Origin: Vicinamibacteria bacterium
Lineage (GTDB): Bacteria > Acidobacteriota > Vicinamibacteria > Marinacidobacterales > Marinacidobacteraceae
Length of the DNA stretch: 64,000 nt
Assembly: GCA_963555995.3 (NCBI GenBank)
Contig: OY821641.1
Coordinates: 1,152,001-1,216,000 of the forward strand
Direction of reading: 5' to 3'
Under the pieces are notes generated by a model. The model saw only the letters and a program-made list of their open reading frames with translations, was not told the DNA's origin and searched no databases. Below, one piece after another: positions 12,112 through 30,150 of the stretch (position 1 is its first letter; each line of letters starts with the position of its first letter). Position numbers and translations under genes: made by a program.

Positions 12112-13602
12112 TCAGTCCAGGCCTTCGTGGGCCATGCGGAGGGCGGCGAGCACGGCGTCCGCCTTCCGGCAGCTCTCGTCGTACTCGGCGGCGGGATCGG
12201 AGTCCGCCACCACGCCGCCCCCGGCCTGGAAGTAGCCGACGCCGTCCTTGGCGATCAGGGTGCGGATCGCGATGGCGGTGTCGGAAGCGCCGCTGTACGA
12301 GAAGTAGCCCACCGCGCCGCCGTAGATGCCGCGGCGTTCCGTTTCCAGTTCGTCAATGATCTCCATGGCGCGGATCTTGGGGGCGCCGGAGAGCGTTCCG
12401 GCCGGGAAGGTGGCGCGGAGCGCGTCGAAGGCGTCCAGCTCGGCGCCGAGCTGTCCCCGCACCCGGGACACGATGTGCATCACGTGCGAGTACCGCTCGA
12501 TGCTCATGAAGTCCTCGACTTCGACTTGGCCGTAGCCGGCCACCCGCCCGACGTCGTTGCGGGCCAGGTCCACGAGCATCACGTGCTCGGCGCGCTCCTT
12601 CTCGTCGGCGAGCAGTTCGGCCCCGAGCGCCGCGTCTTCCTCGGGGGTACGGCCGCGAGGCCGGGTGCCCGCGATCGGACGGGTCTCGATCACCCCGTCC
12701 TCGGTCCGGGTCATCATCTCGGGCGACGCGCCGGCCACCACCAGCCCGTCGAAGTCGATGTAGTACATGTAGGGCGAGGGGTTCACCACCCGGAGCGCCC
12801 GGTAGAAGTCGAAGGGGTGGACGGTGAGCGGCGTCTCGAAGCGCTGGGAGGGCACGACCTGGATGATGTCCCCGGCGGCCACGTAGTCCTTGGCCCGGCG
12901 CACCATTTCGAGGTAGCGGTCCCGGCTCGTGTTGGAAGCCGGTTCGGGGAACGGCCCCGCGTCGCCTCCGGGCAGTCCCAGCCGATAGGGAAGCGGGGCG
13001 CGGATCTCCCGCACCGTCGCCTCGATCTGCGCCTCGGCGGCGTCGTAGGCCTGGTCGGCGAGGCTCGGGTCCGGAACGCTGGCGTTCGCCACCACCTGGA
13101 TCACGTTGCGGGCGCGGTCGAAGCCGAGCACGCTGTCGGTCAGCAGGAACATGGCGTCGGGAATGCCGAGCGAATCGTCCACGCTGTCCGGGAGGCGCTC
13201 GAAACGCCGTACCGCGTCGTAGGACAGATAGCCGACGAAGCCGCCGTGGAAGGGCGGCAGGCCCTCGACGTGCGCCGGGCGCACCTCGGCGAGCATGTCC
13301 CGCAGGGCCGACAGGGGGTCGGCGCTATCGCTGGTCTCGACGCGGCCGTCCTGCAGGTAACGGCGCCGGACCTCGTCGCCGCGGCTCTCGACGATGAGGC
13401 GCGGCTTCGACCCCAGGAACGAATACCTCGCCACGCTCTCGCCGCCCTCGACCGACTCCATCAGGAACGCCGGACCGCGATTCCCCACCCGGAGGAACGT
13501 GGAGACCGGGGTATCGCAGTCGGCGAGGATGTCCCGCCGGACGGGGATCAGGTTCGACTGCCGAGCGAGCGCGCGGAAGTCGGAGCGGGAAGGAAGCAGC
13601 AA
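12112..13602 (-). CDS. trpE: Anthranilate synthase component I
   Basis: FLMESVEGG, NPSPYMYY, PIAGTRPRG, KERAEHVMLVDLARND, FPAGTLSGAPKIRAM, QAGGGVVADS. Confidence 0.95.
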   Translation of the reverse strand: MLLPSRSDFRALARQSNLIPVRRDILADCDTPVSTFLRVGNRGPAFLMESVEGGESVARYSFLGSKPRLIVESRGDEVRRRYLQDGRVETSDSADPLSALRDMLAEVRPAHVEGLPPFHGGFVGYLSYDAVRRFERLPDSVDDSLGIPDAMFLLTDSVLGFDRARNVIQVVANASVPDPSLADQAYDAAEAQIEATVREIRAPLPYRLGLPGGDAGPFPEPASNTSRDRYLEMVRRAKDYVAAGDIIQVVPSQRFETPLTVHPFDFYRALRVVNPSPYMYYIDFDGLVVAGASPEMMTRTEDGVIETRPIAGTRPRGRTPEEDAALGAELLADEKERAEHVMLVDLARNDVGRVAGYGQVEVEDFMSIERYSHVMHIVSRVRGQLGAELDAFDALRATFPAGTLSGAPKIRAMEIIDELETERRGIYGGAVGYFSYSGASDTAIAIRTLIAKDGVGYFQAGGGVVADSDPAAEYDESCRKADAVLAALRMAHEGLD

Positions 13603-13692: not shown

Positions 13693-15447
13693 TCAGGTCC
13701 GGGCGGAGGCGAGGGCGTCCACCCGGACCGCCACCACGTCGGTGTCGTGGTACTGCTGGTGCCGCACCGACGAGGCGTAGTGGCGGAGCAGCCGCAGCGG
13801 CAGCTCCTCTTCGCTCGGGGTGCCGGCGGCCCCTTCGGTCAGCATCGCCATCCGGTCCTCGAGATTCGCGTCCTCCATCGCCGCGATGAACTCGAGTTCC
13901 GCGCGGCCGGCGTCTCCTTCGGCGATGAGGAGCAGCCGTCGTTCCCCCCGCGCCTCCCCGGCGTCCCGGAGCAGCACGTGGAGGGTCTCCTCGCCGACGG
14001 CCCGGAGCTGGCGCACGGTGCGTTCGTCCCAGCGACGGTCGGCGGCGAGTCGCGAGAGGACCGCGTCCACCTCGGCGAAGGCGTCCTCGTTGAGGGCGGT
14101 CCGGAGCCGCAGGCGGCGCTTTCGTCCGAACTCGGCGACCAGGTTCAGGAACACCACCATGAAGCCGCCCACGGTCATGCCGTTTCCGAGCAGGTCGCTC
14201 CACGACCCCTGGAAGTATTCGGGGAAGATCCAGCCGAACTTGAACGCGACGCCGATCCAGAAAGCCAGTCCGACCACGAGGCTCCGGCGGGAGTCGAGGC
14301 CGTCCTGGAGGATGATCCTGACGCCCAGGACGAAGAGCAGGGCGACCAGGATCAGGTAGTACGCGGCGACCGTCGGTCCGGGAATCGCGATGATCGCGGC
14401 CACGAACTTCGGCAGCACGGCGAACAGCGCGAAGAGGACGCCCACGGCGATTCCCACCGAACGGGCGGCGATGCCGGTCAGCTCGGCGACCGCGACGCTG
14501 TTCCCGTAGGTGGTGTTCGGCACCGTGCCGGCGACGCCCGCCAGCAGGTTGCCGACTCCGTCGGCGTTCAGGGCGCCCTGGATGGACCGGAAATCGATCG
14601 CCCGCGGTTTCCTCCAGGAGACCCGCTGGATCGCGATTGCGTCGCCGAGGGTGTCCATGGCCCCGACGAGCGTCACGAGCACGAAGGCGGGAAGCAGCGC
14701 CCAGAACGTGGGGCCGAAGCTGAGATCGAGCCCCGGATACGCGAACGCCGGAAGCCCCACCCACGCAGCGGCCGCGATCCCCGAGGTGTCGTAGATGCCG
14801 AAAACCACGCCGCCCACCACGCATCCCGCGACGATGCCGACGGCCGGCGCCCACACCCGCCAGGCGCCGAAGGAACGGAGCGCAATACCGGCCGTGACCA
14901 GCAGGGTTACGGCGGCGACAACCGGGGCCGCGGCGGCCGAGGCGCCATCCGGTACGTCGGTGAGCTTGCGAATGATCAGCGGGGCCACGTCCACCGGGAT
15001 GAGCATCAGCACGGTCCCCGCGACCGTCGGCGTGAAGATGCGCCGCAGGAGAGACATCTTGGCCGCCAGCGCGAACTGGAACAGGGCCGCGACGATGATC
15101 AGGGTCCCGAGGAGTCCGGGGCCGCCCCGTTCGAGCGCGGAGACGCAGATGGCCAGGAACGCCGAAGAGGTGCCCATGACCAGGATGTACCCCGCCCCGA
15201 TGCGTCCCACCCGCCGGGCCTGGATCGCGGTGGTGATGCCGCTGATCAGCAGCGCCGCGCAGACGGCCCAGGAGAGATAGGCGTCGCTGCCCCCGGCGAT
15301 GCTGATCATGATGGTCGGCGCCAGCACCACGCTGGCCACCGAGATCAGCGCGTACTGGAGCCCGAGCCCGATGGTGATCGGCAGCGGGGGCCGGTCGTCG
15401 GCTTCGTAGCGAACGTGCTGCTCGGCGGGAGCCGCACCCGAATCCAT
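13693..15447 (-). CDS. NCS2 (xanthine/uracil/ascorbate) family permease with C-terminal degenerate RsbW/HATPase-like domain (paralog 1)
   Basis: VRYEADDRPP...GLQ start, ISGITTAIQ, FTPTVAGTVLMLI, GALNADGVG, ELTGIAAR, PKF; hydrophilic tail of about 140 aa. Confidence 0.82.
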   Translation of the reverse strand: MDSGAAPAEQHVRYEADDRPPLPITIGLGLQYALISVASVVLAPTIMISIAGGSDAYLSWAVCAALLISGITTAIQARRVGRIGAGYILVMGTSSAFLAICVSALERGGPGLLGTLIIVAALFQFALAAKMSLLRRIFTPTVAGTVLMLIPVDVAPLIIRKLTDVPDGASAAAAPVVAAVTLLVTAGIALRSFGAWRVWAPAVGIVAGCVVGGVVFGIYDTSGIAAAAWVGLPAFAYPGLDLSFGPTFWALLPAFVLVTLVGAMDTLGDAIAIQRVSWRKPRAIDFRSIQGALNADGVGNLLAGVAGTVPNTTYGNSVAVAELTGIAARSVGIAVGVLFALFAVLPKFVAAIIAIPGPTVAAYYLILVALLFVLGVRIILQDGLDSRRSLVVGLAFWIGVAFKFGWIFPEYFQGSWSDLLGNGMTVGGFMVVFLNLVAEFGRKRRLRLRTALNEDAFAEVDAVLSRLAADRRWDERTVRQLRAVGEETLHVLLRDAGEARGERRLLLIAEGDAGRAELEFIAAMEDANLEDRMAMLTEGAAGTPSEEELPLRLLRHYASSVRHQQYHDTDVVAVRVDALASART

Positions 15448-15514
15448 ACTCACGCGTGGTCCGTATCGAGTGTACCGGGACGCGCCGGACGCCCAGGCTC
15501 CTAAACTTCGGGAC

Positions 15515-16603
15515 ATGGACCTCGACGCGCTGCGCGCCGCCCTCGAAGCGGTGGACGGGGAAATCCTCGACGCCTGGGCGCGGCGGGACGCGATCACGAC
15601 CGCCATCGGCCGGCTGAAACAGTCCGCCGGGCAGGCGATCCACGATCCCGAACAGGAGGCGCGCGTCGTGGAGCGGGCCCGCGCCCAGGCCGCCAGGAGG
15701 GGCATCCCCGGAGACCTTGCCGCCGACCTCGTGGGTCTGCTCATGCACTCCGCGCTCGCCCGGCAGGAAGACGTCCGGGTGCGGGCGGAGGGGCGGGGGG
15801 CCGGCCGGCCCGCACTGGTCGTCGGGGGCGGCGGGAACATGGGCCGCTGGTTCTGCCGGTTCCTCACCGCCCAGGGCTACGAGGTCCGGGTGGCCGACCC
15901 CGCCGGAGGGCCGCCGGGCGTTGCCGCCGCCGCGGACTGGCGGGAGACCCCGGACGAGTTCGCGCTGACCGTGGTGGCGGCGCCGCTCCACATCAGCGCC
16001 GGCATGCTGGAGGGGATCGCCGCGGAGCGGCGGCGGGGCCTGATCTTCGATATCGGGTCGGTCAAGGCGCCGCTCGCGCCTGGACTTCGGGCGCTGGCCG
16101 AGAGCGGCTGCCGGGTCGCCTCGGTGCACCCCATGTTCGGGCCCGACGCCCACGTGCTCCACGGCTGCCACGTGCTGGTCATGGACGTGGGCCACCCTGA
16201 GGCCGCCGAGGAAGCGGCGGCCGTGTTCGGCGGCACGATGGCGGAGATCCTGCGAATGCCCCTGGCGGAGCACGATCCCCTGATCGCCTACGTGCTGGGG
16301 CTCTCCCACGCGCTCAACCTGGCCTTTCTGACCGCGCTTCAGGAGAGCGGAGAGCAGGCGCCCCGCCTCGCCCGCCTGTCGAGCGTGACGTTCGACCGGC
16401 AGTTGCGGGTGGCGGCGGCGGTGGCGCGGGAGAACCCGCACCTCTACTACGAGATCCAGCAGCGGAACCCGCACGGGCCGGCGGCCATCCATAGCCTTGC
16501 CGCCGCCGTTTCCCGCCTCGCGGCCGTGATCCACGACGACGACGAGGAGGCCTTCGTCCGGCTCATGCAGGCTGGCCGGCGCTACGTCTCGGGCCGCGGT
16601 TAG
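15515..16603 (+). CDS. tyrA: Bifunctional chorismate mutase / prephenate dehydrogenase
   Basis: N-terminal AroQ mutase (LDALRAALEAVDGEI...DPEQE), VVGGGGNMG, DIGSVK, SVHPMFGP, EHDPLIAYVLGLSH. Confidence 0.9.
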   Translation: MDLDALRAALEAVDGEILDAWARRDAITTAIGRLKQSAGQAIHDPEQEARVVERARAQAARRGIPGDLAADLVGLLMHSALARQEDVRVRAEGRGAGRPALVVGGGGNMGRWFCRFLTAQGYEVRVADPAGGPPGVAAAADWRETPDEFALTVVAAPLHISAGMLEGIAAERRRGLIFDIGSVKAPLAPGLRALAESGCRVASVHPMFGPDAHVLHGCHVLVMDVGHPEAAEEAAAVFGGTMAEILRMPLAEHDPLIAYVLGLSHALNLAFLTALQESGEQAPRLARLSSVTFDRQLRVAAAVARENPHLYYEIQQRNPHGPAAIHSLAAAVSRLAAVIHDDDEEAFVRLMQAGRRYVSGRG

Positions 16604-16659
16604 CCGTTTTTCCCTCCGCCTCAGAGCCTTGGTGGAGTCCGTGTGCGCGCCTTGAAGCT

Positions 16660-16721
16660 GGGTGGGTTCGCGCCGTGCGCGGCGCGGAGCGCCGCGGTGC
16701 CGGTCTGGAGACCGGCGTTCC
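16660..16721 (-). repeat. REP plus GCGCGGCGC hairpin module (same unit as 35365, 35486, 52512)
   Basis: Reverse complement GGAACGCCGGTCTCCAGACCGGCACCGCGGCGCTCCGCGCCGCGCACG, directly after the stop of the minus-strand gene. Confidence 0.8.
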
Positions 16722-18146
16722 CTACGACCTGCCGAGCAGGTCCCGGAGCGTGCTGATCGCGCGCACCGCCTCCGCCCCGGAGGCGAACGCTCGCGGCTGG
16801 AACGCGCCCGCGTCCGAGACCCGCAGCAGACCGAGTTGCGCCGCGACCGCGACCGCTTCCCGGTAACGGTGGTCGGGGGGCACGTCGCTCAGGTCGAGCC
16901 GCGCGGAGTCTTCCGCGGCGGCCCGGAGAGCCGCCGGGTCGAACTTCCCGAACACCGCCGCCAGTGATTCCGCGAGTTCGGCGCGGGTCACGAGGGCCTG
17001 CGGTTTGAAGGTGTGGTCGGGGAACAGGCGGAGATAGCCCGCGCCGACCGCCGTCTGGATCAGGCTCGCCGCCCAGCTCCGTTCGAGATCAATGGCGATC
17101 ACCGGGTCCGTGTTGCGGTCGTCGTCCGGTTCTCCGATCTCGGCCGCGAGCAGCGCGGCGAGCTGTTCGCGGGTGACGCGCTCCGCTTCCCGGATCGTGG
17201 CGTAACGCTCCGAGAGTCTCGCGACCTCGAGGCGGCGCTCCAGCCCGGCGGCCCGGTCCACGAGGTCCGCGAAGCCGTGCAGCGCGGGGTCCCGCAGGAT
17301 CCCGTCGAGACGCGTCAGGCTCTCGGTGAAGCGGCGCCCGTCGGCCAGCAACTCGGCGGCGGCCAACCCGGAGAGCAGCGCCTGGCGCCGGTTCGCCGCC
17401 GGGTTCGCGGCGACGGTCTCGAACCAATGGCGCGCGCTCGCCCGGTCTCCGGCGGCGAGGGCCGCCTCGGCCGCTTCGAGGAACAGGTCCGCCGAGTCGG
17501 GCATCGCTTCCAGCGCCGCCCGGTACGCCTCCGCGACCGACGGACCCGATTCGCCGGCGCGCGCCCGTTCCCGGGCGAGCGAGAGCCGGTTCTCCGCCAC
17601 CTCGAGCGCGAGTCCCGGCAACCGCTCCGACACCACGGAAGCGTCCGGATCGAGCTCCGACAGGCGCTTCAGTTTGGTGAAGAGCAGTTCCTGGTCCTCG
17701 ATGTCCAGAACCAGGAGCAGGTCCCCGAGCGACGCCAGGACGTCGTCGGGCGCCGCCGCGAGAGCCCGCTCGAAGAGTTCCCCGGCCCCCGGCCGGTCTC
17801 CGCTCCGGAGGGCGAGGAAGCCGGCCGCCGCGAGGACCCCGGGATCGCCGGAGGCGAGGGTCCGGAGCGGCGCGAGCCGCAGGTCGGCTTCGCCGAGGCG
17901 TCCCGCCACGATGAGCGCCCAGCTCTCCCCCAGATCCCGCGCCGCTCCCTCGGTCAGATCCGGGCCCGGAACCGGCGCCCGGTCCTCCACGTACGCCCAT
18001 TCGTCCAGGGGAACCAACGGGATCTCGGGTGGAGGCGTGCTGGCGCAGCCCGCGCCCAGGCACAGCGAGCCGATCCAGCGCGCGGCGCGACCGAGCGCCC
18101 GGCCCCCGGATTTGGCTACCCGCAACACGCCGCCGAGTCTATCCAT
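16722..18146 (-). CDS. TPR-repeat lipoprotein with C-terminal S-layer homology (SLH) domains
   Basis: Lipobox-like LGAGC, TPR-like helices, SLH-like SWAASLIQTAVGAGYLRLFPDHTFKPQALVTRAE and SDVPPDHRYREAVAVAAQLGLL...FQP. Start codon uncertain. Confidence 0.75.
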   Translation of the reverse strand: MDRLGGVLRVAKSGGRALGRAARWIGSLCLGAGCASTPPPEIPLVPLDEWAYVEDRAPVPGPDLTEGAARDLGESWALIVAGRLGEADLRLAPLRTLASGDPGVLAAAGFLALRSGDRPGAGELFERALAAAPDDVLASLGDLLLVLDIEDQELLFTKLKRLSELDPDASVVSERLPGLALEVAENRLSLARERARAGESGPSVAEAYRAALEAMPDSADLFLEAAEAALAAGDRASARHWFETVAANPAANRRQALLSGLAAAELLADGRRFTESLTRLDGILRDPALHGFADLVDRAAGLERRLEVARLSERYATIREAERVTREQLAALLAAEIGEPDDDRNTDPVIAIDLERSWAASLIQTAVGAGYLRLFPDHTFKPQALVTRAELAESLAAVFGKFDPAALRAAAEDSARLDLSDVPPDHRYREAVAVAAQLGLLRVSDAGAFQPRAFASGAEAVRAISTLRDLLGRS

Positions 18147-25307: not shown

Positions 25308-26225
25308 CTACATCGTCGGGGTTCTGCGAATCGCGGCCCAGCCCGGATCCGGGTCGCCGGCCATTACCTTCCGGATTGCGGCGCCGGCGGGTCCGGCCGT
25401 GCCCCAGCGGTCCGCAATCTCGGGCGTCCGTTTCCACACCGTGGGTTCGTGGGTTGCCTCGTCGGCGATGTGCTCCATGTCGCTCGTGTACTCGCACACG
25501 TAGCCGGCGGGATCCCTGAAGTAGCAGAAGATGTTGTTGCCCGGCCCGTGACGCCCGGGCCCCCAGTCGGGCTCGTGCCCGCGGGCGCGCAGGTTGGCGA
25601 GACCGGTCATCACGCCGTCCACGTTCGCCATCACGTACGCCACGTGGTTGACCGAGGCGTACGGCGCGCGATGGAAGGCGAGGACGTGGTGTTTCCGACC
25701 GCAGCGCAGGAACGCCATCCGGTCCTCGATCCAGTCCGAGACCCGGAACCCCAGGACCTCGGTGTAGAACGCGACGATCCGATCGAACCGGGCGGTGTTC
25801 AGGACCACGTGGCAGAGTCGGCGCGGCTCGACGCGGCCGGCGGACCAGCCGTTCGGGTGTTCGGCGACGCCCGCCGACAGCTCGATGCAGCGGTTCTCTG
25901 GGTCGAGCAGGCGGAGGCCGTAACCGCCGCCCGGCGCCTCGAGGTCGTGGGGCGGCGCCACGATGGGGACGCCGCGCTGTTCGAGTTCGGCTGCCGCCGC
26001 AGCGATGGCCCCGCGGCCGTCCACGCGGAAGGCGAGATGGTGCAGCCCGCGCCGGCCGGCCGGGTGCAGGCTGAGAATGTGGTGCTCGGACGACGATCCG
26101 CGGAAATACCGCGCGTGACGGTCTTCCCCGGCCGATTGCAGTCCCCAGGTCCGGAGGTAGAACCCGGCCTGCGCCGCAATCGCGGGCGACAGCAGCGCCA
26201 CTTGGCGGATGTCCCGGATCTTCAT
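25308..26225 (-). CDS. VOC-family extradiol ring-cleavage dioxygenase-like protein
   Basis: Two VOC domains; LCHVVL, FY..VLGFRVSD, HHVLAF, NHVAY, WGPGRHGPGNNIFCYFRDPAGYVCEY. Confidence 0.85.
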   Translation of the reverse strand: MKIRDIRQVALLSPAIAAQAGFYLRTWGLQSAGEDRHARYFRGSSSEHHILSLHPAGRRGLHHLAFRVDGRGAIAAAAAELEQRGVPIVAPPHDLEAPGGGYGLRLLDPENRCIELSAGVAEHPNGWSAGRVEPRRLCHVVLNTARFDRIVAFYTEVLGFRVSDWIEDRMAFLRCGRKHHVLAFHRAPYASVNHVAYVMANVDGVMTGLANLRARGHEPDWGPGRHGPGNNIFCYFRDPAGYVCEYTSDMEHIADEATHEPTVWKRTPEIADRWGTAGPAGAAIRKVMAGDPDPGWAAIRRTPTM

Positions 26226-26244
26226 CGGCAGGAAACCCCGTGCA

Positions 26245-26958
26245 TCAGGCGTCTCTCCTCCGGGTCAGCTCGATCCTCAGGTCCCGCCGGATATAGACCT
26301 CGAAGAACTCGCGCAGCCAGACCTCCTCGGCGAGCGTGAACCGGTCGGTCAGTTCCTGCGCGGGCCGTTCCGTGAGATAGACGATACGCCACCGGTTGAG
26401 CGGCCGCGATTCGTCGCCGCCGGCCGCGTGCTCGACGTGGAAGAGCGGCTGTCCGCCGCCGGCCCGCAGCCGGTTCCCGTCCTCGTCGAGGAGTTCCGAG
26501 GCTCCGATGAAGGTGGCGCTCTGCCGCGCGGGGTTCAGGAAGACCTGCTCGAGGACCAGCCCCCGCCGTGACGGCTCCAGCCACCGGCGCTGCTCGGAAC
26601 ATCGCGCGAACGACTCGGCGCCGCCGTCCGCCGTCCGCCGGCCCCAGTGGCGGGCGCTGCCCGCCGTCACGACGGACGGAATGTAGAGGTCGGGCCGGAA
26701 CGCCTTCTTCACCTCCATGTCCCACATCATGGTCCGGGTGAAGGTGAGCGGTTCGGTCGTTCGGTAGCGCTCGGCGAGCACCCGGTTGACGTCCACCGGA
26801 GGCAACTCGATGCGGGTGTTGCCCCGATCGGTCCAGGCCCGCTCGAACTCCGCTTCATGATCCAGCGAAGCGGCCGGCGTCGCCGCCGCCCGCTCGGGTG
26901 GTGACGCGGTCGTTCCCGGCGCCGCCGCCCTGCGTCGCGTCCGCACGTGGCCCCCCAT
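26245..26958 (-). CDS. Hypothetical protein, possibly START/SRPBCC (DUF1857/AtaL-like) fold
   Basis: Globular-looking C-terminal part of the 26245-28269 ORF (PVDVNRVL...LTFTRTMMWDMEVKKAFRPDLYIP). Start and fold uncertain. Confidence 0.55.
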   Translation of the reverse strand: MGGHVRTRRRAAAPGTTASPPERAAATPAASLDHEAEFERAWTDRGNTRIELPPVDVNRVLAERYRTTEPLTFTRTMMWDMEVKKAFRPDLYIPSVVTAGSARHWGRRTADGGAESFARCSEQRRWLEPSRRGLVLEQVFLNPARQSATFIGASELLDEDGNRLRAGGGQPLFHVEHAAGGDESRPLNRWRIVYLTERPAQELTDRFTLAEEVWLREFFEVYIRRDLRIELTRRRDA

Positions 26959-26966
26959 CCCGCTCG

Positions 26967-28400
26967 TCACCCCGCGGCGAACGCCTGAAGCGCCGGCACC
27001 AGGACCATGCTCAGGGCGATCACCACGATCGAGGTCAGGACGGTGGCCACGAGACCGACCCGGAACAACGTCCCGAATCCGACCGCGCCGAAGGAGAAGG
27101 TGGCGGCCACCGCCGGGCTGGACCAGGGCAGGGCCACCCCCTGGGCGGTGCCCGCGATGATCCGCGCGAGGATCGCCGGGTTGTAGCCGAGAGCCTCCGC
27201 CATCGGGAAGAGCATGGTCGAAACCATCATGGTGGTCGCCGTACCGCTGGCCAGTTGCGTCAGCAGCGGGGTGGCCAGCCCCGCCACCCAGGGCAGGGCC
27301 GCCGCCGTAACGTGGCCCGTGAGGATGCCGACCAGCCAGTCCAGCATGCCCAGGCTCGCGAGCACCCCGGCGAGCGCCGTCCCGCCGAGCACCAGGAACA
27401 GCAGGTTCCATCCGACGCCGCGCTGAAAGTCGTCGGCTTCCAGAGTCATCGCGCCGCGCTTCGCGTCGGCCGGCAGCACGAAGAGCAGCACCATCGCCAC
27501 GGGCGGCACGAACCAGATGTCGAGAAACCCGACGGTGACGACCGTGGGCAGGGTCCACAGGACCAGCATCAGGATCAGCACCGCCAGGACGTTCCTTTCG
27601 CCCCGGCTCATGGGACCGAGTTGCTCGCGTTCGCGGCGGAAGCGTTCGCGCGCGCCGGCGATGGCATGGATTTCGGGCCGCAGCATGAACTTCAGGATCC
27701 AGTAGCAGACCGGGAAGTGGGCCGCCGTCAGGAATACGCCGCTCAGCGTCCACTGCGCGAAGCTGACGCTGTAGCCGGTCAACTGTTCGAGCAGCGAGAG
27801 GGCGAGCGCGTTGAAGACGATGCCGGCCGGCGTCGCCAGCCCGCCGGCGGCGGCGCCGTAGAGGACCGCCAGGGTCGCCGCCGCGGCCATCCGGTCCGCG
27901 CCGGGCGCCAGGGAGCGGATCAGGGACAGGACGATGGGCGTCATCGTCACGATGACCGCCAGGTCGCTGACCGCCGCGGACATCACCGCGGACACCACCA
28001 GGATCGCGAAGATCAGGCCGGCGCCGGATCGCGCCACTCCCGGCAGGGCGAGCGCGGCCAGGGCGATTCGCCGCGCCAGGCCGTGTTTCCGGAACGCGTG
28101 CCCGAACAGCATGATGCCCATCAGATAGGGGAAGATGGGCTGGCCGTAACGGGCGGCGACCTCGGAGAAGGGCATCGCGCCAAGCGGGAGCAGGACGAGC
28201 GGCAGGAAGCTGGCGACCGCCCAGGGCACGGGCCGGGTGACCCACCACGCCACCGTCCACGCGCTGCAACCGAGAGCGAAGTGCGCCTCGGGAGCGAGGC
28301 CGGTCAGGGGTGCGGCGTGGACGAGCGCGAACGCCGCCGGCCCCGCCAGCAGGCGCCAGCCGAACCCTCGCCGGCCGGTCGGCGCCTCACCGGCCCCCAT
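26967..28400 (-). CDS. DASS/SLC13 sodium:dicarboxylate/sulfate symporter
   Basis: Many TM helices; HGLARRIAL, AGGLATPAGIVFN, SFAQW, GVGWNLLFLVLGG. Confidence 0.85.
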   Translation of the reverse strand: MGAGEAPTGRRGFGWRLLAGPAAFALVHAAPLTGLAPEAHFALGCSAWTVAWWVTRPVPWAVASFLPLVLLPLGAMPFSEVAARYGQPIFPYLMGIMLFGHAFRKHGLARRIALAALALPGVARSGAGLIFAILVVSAVMSAAVSDLAVIVTMTPIVLSLIRSLAPGADRMAAAATLAVLYGAAAGGLATPAGIVFNALALSLLEQLTGYSVSFAQWTLSGVFLTAAHFPVCYWILKFMLRPEIHAIAGARERFRREREQLGPMSRGERNVLAVLILMLVLWTLPTVVTVGFLDIWFVPPVAMVLLFVLPADAKRGAMTLEADDFQRGVGWNLLFLVLGGTALAGVLASLGMLDWLVGILTGHVTAAALPWVAGLATPLLTQLASGTATTMMVSTMLFPMAEALGYNPAILARIIAGTAQGVALPWSSPAVAATFSFGAVGFGTLFRVGLVATVLTSIVVIALSMVLVPALQAFAAG

Positions 28401-30150
28401 CGCTGGCCTCCGGGACGTCCACCCGGACGGTGACGATTTCCGAGTCGTGGAACTGCTCGTGGCGAACCGAGGTCGCGAGGTGGCGCAACAGTCGCAGCGA
28501 GACTTCCTGCTCCGCGCGTACCGGGTCGGGCCGGTCGGTCAACAGGCCGATCCGGTCCTCGACGTTCTCCTCACCGGCCGCGGCGATGAACTCGAGGACC
28601 GCACCCCCGCTCTCCTTGCGCGCCCTGAGCAGCAGGCGCCGCCGCTCGGGTCTTTCGGGGTCCCGTTCCTCCCCGGTCAGCGTCAGCAACGTCTCCTCGC
28701 TGACCGCGTCCAGACGGTCCACCATCGCCGCGCCCCAGCCGTTACGGGCGGTGAACGCGCCGAGGAACTCCCGGATCTTCGGCATCGCGGACAGATCGAG
28801 GCCCACCTCGATCCGGCTGCGCCGGGGCGCCGTCGCCTCGAGGAACAGCGTCATGAAGATGGCCACCACGCTGCCGGCCGTGATTCCGTTCCGCAACAGG
28901 CCGCCCGCGAACTCCGCGAGAACCTGGGGGAAGATCAGGTCGTTCTGGCAGCCGACCCCGACCCAGAAGGCGACCCCGGCGATCAGCGCCTTGCGGTGAT
29001 CCATCCCGCCCTGCAGCACCTCCGTCATGCCGCGGACGAAGCTCATCGCCAGCACCACGGTCAGGTAGGCCACCACGACCGCGCTGGGGATCGCCAGGAT
29101 CAGGGCGAGGACCTTGGGGAGGAACGCCAGCGCGATCAGCGCGCCCCCGGCGGCGATCCCCACCCGGCGGGACGCCACCCCGGTCAGCTCCACCGTCGGG
29201 ACGCTGATCCCGATGGTCTGGGTCGGCATGATCGCGGTGAAGCCGGACAGCAGCTTGCCGATGCCGTCCGCCGCCACCGCGCCCTCCACCGCCCGGTAGT
29301 CCACGGCCCGCTCCCGCCGCCAGGACACGCGCTGGATGGCGACCGCCCCGGTGATCGTCTGGATGGCGCCGATGAGGGCCACGAACCCGAAGGCCGGAAG
29401 GAGCTCCACGAACGCCGGCCCGAAGTCGAGCCCGATACCCGGCCAACCTCCCTCCGGCACGCCGACCCAGGGCGCCCGGCCGACGCGGCCCGGATCGTAG
29501 AGGCCCAGCGATGCGGCGACCAGGGTGCCGGCGACGATCCCGACGAGCGGCGCCCACAGGCGCAGGGTCGCCCCTCCCTTCAACGAGATGGCGCTGATGA
29601 TCAGGATCGTCGCCAGTGCGGTGAGCGGCGCGTCCAGCGGCGCCGCGTCGCCCGGCGCCTCGGCCAGGCGGGTGAACACCACCGGCAGCACCGTCGCCGG
29701 CACCAGCATGTTGACCGTGCCGACGATGGTCGGCGTGAGCAGCCGCCGGAACAGGGCGAGCCGCAGCGAGATCACCACCGGGACGAGCGACGAGGCGATG
29801 ACCAGTGTCGCGAGCAGCAGCGGACCCCCTTCGACGAGCGCGGTGACGCAGACCCCGATGTAGGCCCCGGCGGGGCCCATCGCGAGTACGTATCCCGCTC
29901 CGATGCGGCCCAGCCGGACCGCCTGCAGCGCCGTGGAGATGCCGCTGACGGCCACCGCGCTGAACACCGCCCACGAGAGGTAGGCGTCCGTGCCGCCGGC
30001 GACCCGGATCACGATGGTCGGGATCAGGACGATGCTGGCGAGCCCGAGCACCACGAGCTGCAGCCCGGAACCGAGCGTGAGTGCGGTCGGCGGCCTCTCG
30101 TCGGCTTCGTAGCGAACGCCGGCGTCCGGCGGCGCGTTGCGGGCGCTCAC
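28387..30150 (-). CDS. NCS2 permease with C-terminal degenerate RsbW/HATPase-like domain (paralog 2)
   Basis: Colinear with 13693-15447: VRYEADERPP, AIQRVSWRR, ELTGVASRRVG, LEFIAA, LRLLRH, VRHEQFHD. Confidence 0.82.
   Translation of the reverse strand: MSARNAPPDAGVRYEADERPPTALTLGSGLQLVVLGLASIVLIPTIVIRVAGGTDAYLSWAVFSAVAVSGISTALQAVRLGRIGAGYVLAMGPAGAYIGVCVTALVEGGPLLLATLVIASSLVPVVISLRLALFRRLLTPTIVGTVNMLVPATVLPVVFTRLAEAPGDAAPLDAPLTALATILIISAISLKGGATLRLWAPLVGIVAGTLVAASLGLYDPGRVGRAPWVGVPEGGWPGIGLDFGPAFVELLPAFGFVALIGAIQTITGAVAIQRVSWRRERAVDYRAVEGAVAADGIGKLLSGFTAIMPTQTIGISVPTVELTGVASRRVGIAAGGALIALAFLPKVLALILAIPSAVVVAYLTVVLAMSFVRGMTEVLQGGMDHRKALIAGVAFWVGVGCQNDLIFPQVLAEFAGGLLRNGITAGSVVAIFMTLFLEATAPRRSRIEVGLDLSAMPKIREFLGAFTARNGWGAAMVDRLDAVSEETLLTLTGEERDPERPERRRLLLRARKESGGAVLEFIAAAGEENVEDRIGLLTDRPDPVRAEQEVSLRLLRHLATSVRHEQFHDSEIVTVRVDVPEASDGGR

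Follow-up and report, generated by a model that had tools for sequence, protein, structure and literature searches.

What would a kinase-like domain that has lost its ATP site do on a transport protein? The best-known role of partner switches is the control of sigma factors, and the gene described here, located in a 64,000-nucleotide stretch of Vicinamibacteria bacterium DNA (the window), joins a permease of the NCS2 fold to a pseudo-RsbW domain (13693..15447, minus strand; 584 amino acids, ATG at 15447). A preliminary description had offered two roles for the product, namely a sensor feeding a partner-switching circuit or a regulated transporter for a substrate other than a nucleobase. The evidence leans toward the regulated transporter, because the switch cassette of tail-bearing genomes has its own input and usually lacks an adjacent sigma gene (present in 1 of 20 loci). 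We propose, at what we judge to be even odds, that docking of a STAS protein on the ATP-less RsbW-like tail lets a remote phosphorylation switch set transport on or off. The observed part of this proposal comprises the fusion, the predicted fold, the loss of ATP-site residues, conservation, and genomic co-occurrence.

The permease gene and its locus

The reading frame (15447-13693, minus strand) is unbroken, with zero internal stops. A contig from a DNA run spans 13743-16697 with two differences from the window; it may come from the same sample, and hence is not independent. Contigs from two RNA-labelled runs span the permease gene and its spacers at similar depth, and therefore transcription is not demonstrated by those contigs. 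A search for promoter- or terminator-like sites for the permease gene found none.

The gene is co-oriented with its downstream neighbor trpE (12112..13602, minus strand), 90 bp upstream of the trpE start, and is divergent from tyrA (chorismate mutase-prephenate dehydrogenase; 15470..16603, plus strand); both neighbors are outside the system. The gap from the permease start is 22 bp to the first possible tyrA start and 67 bp to the tyrA ATG at 15515. Given the 22 bp gap (window 15447-15515), the divergent promoters must therefore overlap coding sequence. A short repeated element with very high contig depth lies at about 16660-16725, between tyrA and an SLH gene, and a sequence resembling it was found again in the trpE region of a relative.

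The placement between trpE and tyrA had been pointed out before and is correct, but it carries no functional message, since relatives have tyrA and trpE without an intact gene between them. Among five relatives picked as seeming to lack the orthologue, two (G959 and G972) have tyrA in direct divergence from trpE, and in the others (G956, G963, and G968) only a tail remnant separates the two genes; a role tied to the synthesis of aromatic amino acids was therefore rejected. Two further relatives retain an intact permease gene at this site. The gene entered the tyrA-trpE spacer in part of the lineage, its loss leaves the operon undisturbed, and its position is incidental.

An NCS2-fold membrane domain with an altered substrate site

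The claim that an NCS2 permease is fused to an RsbW-like tail is borne out by one continuous open reading frame, a PF00860 match, and an RsbW-type predicted fold. The membrane domain comprises residues 1-439 (14131..15447, minus strand) and is assigned to the NCS2/SLC23 fold by PF00860 and by the predicted model. The PF00860 match covers residues 25-401 (E 1.6e-40; 139.5 bits versus a cut-off of 27), and the scores for two NCBIfam models fall short of their cut-offs (TIGR00801, 160.9 versus 291.8 bits; TIGR03173, 182.9 versus 414.15 bits), those for NCS2 and xanthine permease. In the full-length predicted model (pLDDT 86, pTM 0.83), the beta strands of TM3 and TM10 are intact (residues 91-93 and 311-313), and the closest folds are UapA (E 1e-16), UraA (target TM 0.84), and SVCT1.

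The substrate site departs from that of characterized relatives at several positions. XanQ H31 is replaced by Y32, and the substrate-binding TM8 Glu (XanQ E272, UapA E356) is replaced by D265 (14653..14655, minus strand). The NAT signature (N316-T324; 14476..14502, minus strand) had been given as GNSVAVAELT. It is indeed degenerate, but that register is off by one, and neither the Gln nor the Asn is retained: by alignment to E. coli XanQ, N316 corresponds to Q324, S317 to N325, A319 to G327, and the retained T324 to T332. Among the nucleobase-NAT features ([Q/E/P]-N-x-G-x4-T, TM8 Glu, and TM1 His), T324 alone is retained. Both acidic residues tied to transport in XanQ/UapA are kept, XanQ D276 as D269 (TM8) and D304 as D296 (TM9). 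Judged from these residues, a nucleobase is an unlikely substrate, and the "xanthine permease" labels now on members of this family are probably wrong.

Among 94 nonredundant full-length family members, D269 is present in 76 and D296 in 67, and the Y-D-D-D pattern of this permease is common to 40. Other members have Glu, Lys, Arg, or Gln at the TM8 Glu position, and four site positions yield 37 residue patterns in the 94 sequences; the substrate sites thus vary far more than the tail. Those of the genome's four paralogs differ from one another. Such variation, including Lys or Arg for the TM8 Glu, would suit a transceptor, in which a solute is bound (whether moved or not) and the signal enters the switch via STAS capture or pairing with the intact RsbW. 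The strongest point in favor of a sensor, and one that counts against a docked transporter, is that D265 equals the UapA substitution E356D, for which PMC3405029 gives an 18-fold gain in affinity and abolished transport; the same text terms UapA N409 irreplaceable, and its equivalent here is Ser. A fungal point mutant is nevertheless a poor predictor for a 25%-identical protein, and the retention of D269 and D296 also speaks against a transceptor, which we consider unlikely.

Gene neighborhoods agree better with an uptake function. Over 79 loci, neighbors scanned by Pfam (67 of 72 recurrent clusters, without singletons) are mostly catabolic and are conserved only among close kin; recurrent catabolic enzymes, which would be expected near uptake genes, are a further point against a transceptor. 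Of the 79 loci, 19 contain a group II PLP decarboxylase gene, and 17 of these seem to represent a single lineage; such a gene also adjoins one paralog here. An amino acid or amine as the substrate of the acidic-pocket subfamily is a weak lead. In this genome, the PLP-dependent decarboxylase gene (G000:C1:2139155-2140345) is convergent on the paralog at 2137312-2139060, and genes for similar enzymes lie beside family members in other lineages.

Paralogs and distribution of the tailed family

The genome carries four tailed PF00860 genes that are 46-50% identical and a fifth PF00860 gene that is tail-less. A second paralog within the window (28387..30150, minus strand; 46% identical) has the same tail and a different substrate site. 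Window positions 25308-30150 hold this paralog followed by an SLC13/DASS transporter gene and a VOC-family gene, all on the same strand. A creatininase-like gene (a label from sequence) faces the group, and the stretch is possibly a small catabolic module.

Tail matches number 1,328 proteins of 321-1022 residues, with PF00860 present in 120 of 120 among the matches listed, and 793 representatives at 50% identity match the tail profile. A cluster look-up gave unnamed clusters and one with PF13581 in 15% of its members, which is no more than a lead, and ten distant members of the tailed family are without names. All of the 79 closest genome loci are from metagenome-assembled genomes, with titles naming Acidobacteria, Gemmatimonadota, Gamma- and Alphaproteobacteria, Nitrospinota, Binatia, and Rhodothermales. 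Many tail-bearing lineages appear to be sponge symbionts, and sequencing runs with the label sponge metagenome yielded contigs about 93-95% identical over the permease gene. The tail occurs in 14 of 301 genomes of this phylum, in 26 of 27 of this family, and in 41 of 251 genomes of the phylum to which G302 belongs, where one genome may have as many as 9 copies; it was found in none of 400 sampled relatives of G301, and a metagenome scan with P0293 gave no match. The tailed family is large, patchy, and multi-copy. Apparent extra fusions among the representatives (P0306, P0327, P0385, P0389, P0279, P0334, and P0384), one of which runs into sigma region 2, were set aside because they look like frameshifted or mis-called tails; the word-index search covered proteins of up to 1022 residues.

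A tail with a predicted RsbW fold and no ATP site

The soluble tail previously placed after the membrane domain corresponds to residues 440-584 (13696..14130, minus strand), which include all of the peptides quoted for it and are predicted to adopt the RsbW/SpoIIAB (Bergerat) fold. Searches with the tail alone gave zero family matches in Pfam and NCBIfam. The suggested match to PF13581 was not obtained, as this tail lies below the Pfam cut-off and only 4 of 62 relatives' tails match weakly (best E 0.0028). No STAS family in Pfam matches the tail, and comparison of the tail profile with the PDB by sequence yielded chance hits only.

A model derived from 62 tails (pLDDT 82, pTM 0.78) has the element order strand-helix-helix-strand-strand-helix-helix-strand-strand. 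Foldseek with this model placed UsfX, RsbW, and SpoIIAB on top (E 5e-7 to 4e-4). In a fold search of 48,161 chains, RsbW-type proteins scored Z 16.1, 15.7, 15.7, and 14.7, among them 3ke6 (Z 16.1, rmsd 2.3 over 118 residues) and 6m36 (Z 15.7, rmsd 2.0 over 103 residues); LvrC and SiaB scored 11.6 and 11.5, and histidine kinases at most 7.9. Profile comparison by hhalign of the tail with orthologues of the intact kinase of this genome (G000:C1:301804-302280, hereafter RsbW0) gave E 2e-5 over 123 columns, and the tail profile picks up intact RsbW0-subtype kinases at E 0.0006-0.009.

In kinases of this type, an Asn and an Asp are needed for Mg-ATP, and Asp81 of SpoIIAB has a role in the nucleotide site. 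Residues are numbered by the SpoIIAB chain, and roles other than that of Asp81 are from PMC10345196, which places S45 and E46 next to the STAS site and Arg20 in a STAS-side cluster. The reported absence of the N-box Asn, D-x-G, and G-x-G holds in the aligned columns. V491 replaces Asn50 in the N-box helix (13975..13992, minus strand), where E486 and E487 (SpoIIAB S45 and E46) are nearly invariant; A522-A523-M524 occupies the G1 position in place of D-x-G (13876..13884, minus strand), and E548-L549-P550 the G2 position in place of G-x-G (13798..13806, minus strand). From 477 tail matches, 332 remained after removal at >90% identity, of which 322 span all key columns. An Asn at the Asn50 position occurs in 5 of these 322 tails and the G1 Asp in none, the two together likewise in none; the first G2 Gly is found in none and the second in one. 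Out of register nearby, some D-x-G is seen in 5 tails and some G-x-G in 23. E486 is kept in 321 of 328 tails and E487, at the catalytic Glu46 position, in 326 of 328; the E486 position is Asp in RsbW0. For four orthologue pairs, dN/dS is 0.13-0.17 in the tail and 0.14-0.20 in the membrane domain, and this similarity therefore indicates that the tail is not decaying. By alignment, the ATP site is gone across the tail family, and the tail is under purifying selection.

In 124 full-length sequences, the only invariant tail columns are E486, E487, and H563. This pattern would fit residual catalysis on the Glu pair and the conserved His, for example dephosphorylation of STAS or a metal-dependent reaction, a reading made very improbable by the complete absence of tails that keep both Asn and Asp. 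Other positions are in keeping with a self-contained tail, that is, a dimer clamp, a folding aid, or a small-molecule sensor with a remodelled pocket, that would act independently of the switch, with co-occurrence reflecting ancestry and habitat. The near-invariant residues N528, R552, H556, H563, and D570 have no functional RsbW counterpart, the SpoIIAB Arg20 position is reversed to Asp (D461, 97 of 100), and the carriers are clustered lineages. RsbW and NCS2 proteins both dimerise, which also counts for this reading. The Asp at the Arg20 position, and the Arg at the SpoIIAB Glu39 position, weigh against STAS docking.

Switch genes near the permeases

Switch genes were sought with local profiles made from the STAS, PP2C, and RsbW proteins of this genome, which recover their members at E 1e-7 or better in leave-one-out runs, except SulP STAS. 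None lies near the genome's four copies, the nearest being 98-563 kb away, and the suggested STAS/PP2C neighborhood at this locus is accordingly absent. Across four sets of regions, which partly overlap and are not independent, switch genes were found in 0 of 79, 4 of 20, 2 of 40, and 0 of 20. A STAS neighbor (STAS only) is present in 6 of 159 own-family regions, from two lineages, where our estimate for chance is about 3; by count, STAS adjacency is no more than chance. The distance from the cassette and the low STAS count argue against docking and for a self-contained tail.

The six STAS genes are co-oriented with the permease gene at a distance of about one to two genes and are nearest to the STAS beside RsbW0. 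They belong to one acidobacterial genus (in the order permease-GPP34-STAS) and to a genome pair of another phylum; the recurrence of a nearby co-oriented STAS from a single subgroup in two unrelated lineages is a point against the self-contained tail. In the one genus, GPP34-domain genes lie between permease and STAS (L134, L136, L142, and L140); a distant paralog in G110 is bordered by GPP34-like fusions. G304 has an own-family tail end, truncated where its contig stops, that precedes PP2C and RsbW in the same orientation.

In this genome, RsbW0 and STAS form a two-gene operon (G000:C1:301469-302280; L195, L010) that is present in 25 of 27 family genomes and has no phosphatase or sigma gene beside it. 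Ser57 of this STAS (301469-301807), one of six STAS domains encoded in the genome, is invariant. In several orthologues of RsbW0, the G1 Asp is replaced by His. Two-STAS cassettes were considered as NCS2 partners and rejected, because 16 regions of order-level relatives contain zero NCS2 genes. These loci (L230-L245) are PP2C-RsbW-STAS-x-STAS cassettes that occur in several copies in large genomes belonging to this order, and neither a sigma match nor an NCS2 gene was seen within 20 kb of them.

Co-occurrence with one kinase subtype

An RsbW0-type kinase (counted at E 1e-12 or better; the set includes G861, unpublished and tail-negative) is present in 40 of 41 tail-bearing versus 10 of 210 tail-negative genomes of one phylum, and in 14 of 14 tail-bearing genomes (6 genera) versus 27 of 287 tail-negative genomes of the other. 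As a control, the second RsbW of the genome occurs in 23 of 41 versus 94 of 210 (p 0.23). Note that these counts are uncorrected for kinship or shared habitat, and p-values overstate the association because related genomes from common habitats are not independent observations. The kinase is present in G303, G304, and G305. Exceptions are G913, which has tails and no kinase match, and G301, which has three tails and a weak kinase match (E 4e-6). Within the family, where the tail is found in 26 of 27 genomes and the STAS orthologue in 25 of 27, G974 lacks both. This joint absence, and a co-occurrence that spans two phyla and several families with one kinase subtype, count against the self-contained tail, which on balance we find rather unlikely.

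The 20 kinase loci scanned in tail-bearing genomes include STAS in 19, PP2C in 18, and sigma in 1; of 20 loci from tail-negative genomes, 7 have a sigma gene, and six of these 7 are probably from one lineage. The cassette phosphatases are receiver-PP2C fusions in 7 of 9 scanned. Up to 9 permease copies per genome share mostly one kinase, a ratio that would suit a transceptor variant in which the paralogs are a sensor array feeding one switch. Such an array has no evident output, given the single sigma gene in 20 loci, and the cassette carries its own input domains. The permease is more likely an output of the cassette than its sensor.

A second tailed family beside the cassette

In G820, genes for a binding protein, a Cache-HAMP-PP2C protein, STAS, RsbW, and a 575-amino acid NCS2 protein stand in a row, so that the NMT1-like binding protein and Cache-PP2C provide this cassette's input. 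The tail of the G820 NCS2 protein is too distant for the own-family profile and founds a second family of 77 proteins, also found on plasmids of Azospirillum, Thiodictyon, and Pseudoroseomonas. The second-family tail matches RsbW0 at E 3e-6 and the tail of this permease at E 3e-5. Genes of STAS, PP2C, or RsbW0 type adjoin the second family in 48 of 77 metagenome loci, and in 21 of 29 loci of at least 7 kb; no sigma match was found beside it among the loci listed. The cassette is absent from 2 of 3 plasmid loci, which argues against docking. Support for the partner-switch link is indirect and comes from genome co-occurrence and this related family, not from the locus in the window.

In a quick tree (88 rows, half of the family set), the two tailed families each form a clade apart from canonical NCS2, with support 100 for the own-family clade. 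The membrane-domain tree is compatible with both one shared fusion and two. On the Thiodictyon plasmid, a 173-amino acid "hypothetical protein" (THSYN_RS30630; L295:13085-13606) encoded before a STAS gene matches the second-family tail at E 7e-14 and is possibly a stand-alone dead RsbW domain. An HATPase_c_2-GNAT fusion (L278:10063-11559) is convergent on the G820 cassette.

Discussion

In the proposed docking mechanism, RsbW0 would phosphorylate the adjacent STAS at Ser57, and the receiver-PP2C phosphatase (C1:593156 region) would reverse this step. Unphosphorylated STAS would bind the permease tail, which could not phosphorylate and release it, and a single switch would gate all four paralogs. 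The tail may have arisen when the cassette's kinase was copied onto a permease, with catalysis lost and the STAS-facing surface kept; the own-family permease genes would then have multiplied and dispersed, the single cassette staying put. More tentatively, and with somewhat less than even confidence, this would be a sigma-less partner switch with a transporter regulon as output, in which STAS phosphorylation gates up to nine permeases of differing specificities.

Each part is of a known kind, and what is new is the way the parts are combined and the output proposed for them. We found no description of the NCS2-dead-RsbW architecture in the full-text literature, a scope that mostly excludes subscription papers. 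The tail resembles RsbW/SpoIIAB/UsfX kinases (PF13581; 6m36, 6m37, 1l0o, 1tid, 8ih8, and 3ke6) in predicted fold, element order, the catalytic-Glu position, and weak profile homology, best to the RsbW0 subtype. Unlike them, it lacks equivalents of Asn50, Asp81, and Gly107/Gly109, has Asp for Arg20, scores below the Pfam cut-off, and is fused to a membrane transporter with no sigma factor or STAS gene beside it. The membrane domain shares its fold, the TM1 Gln, the TM8/TM9 Asp residues, and the signature Thr with NCS2/NAT/SLC23 proteins (XanQ, UacT, UraA, UapA, and SVCT1; PF00860), but His31, Glu272, Gln324, Asn325, and Gly327 of XanQ are replaced, the clade is separate, and the additional 145-amino acid cytoplasmic domain is unmatched among solved NCS2 proteins in sequence or fold searches.

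SLC26/SulP transporters have the same superfold and a C-terminal partner-switch module, which in SulP is STAS, whereas this permease bears the kinase-like half and would recruit STAS in trans. The SiaABC partner switch has a non-sigma output. SiaA/SiaB/SiaC (6kko) and CapK/CapS are, like the proposed switch, kinase-STAS pairs with non-sigma output (for CapK/CapS, PMC13373217), but their kinases are active and their outputs soluble, with no transporter-fused dead kinase. Compared with the PP2C-STAS-RsbW-sigma module, the STAS, PP2C, and sigma gene set is absent near the four copies, and the second family has the set minus sigma in the 48 of 77 loci noted above.

The tailed family constitutes an unannotated radiation of the NCS2 fold with non-nucleobase sites, expanded in uncultured, apparently sponge-associated lineages. 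If the docking proposal is true, a dead RsbW domain on a permease would be a new output of partner switches, providing post-translational control of uptake, and would give a bacterial GHKL pseudokinase a definite function. It would also offer a simple model for STAS regulation of SLC26-fold transporters, in which STAS is a separate, phosphorylatable subunit and the STAS-capped SLC26-like architecture is assembled in trans.
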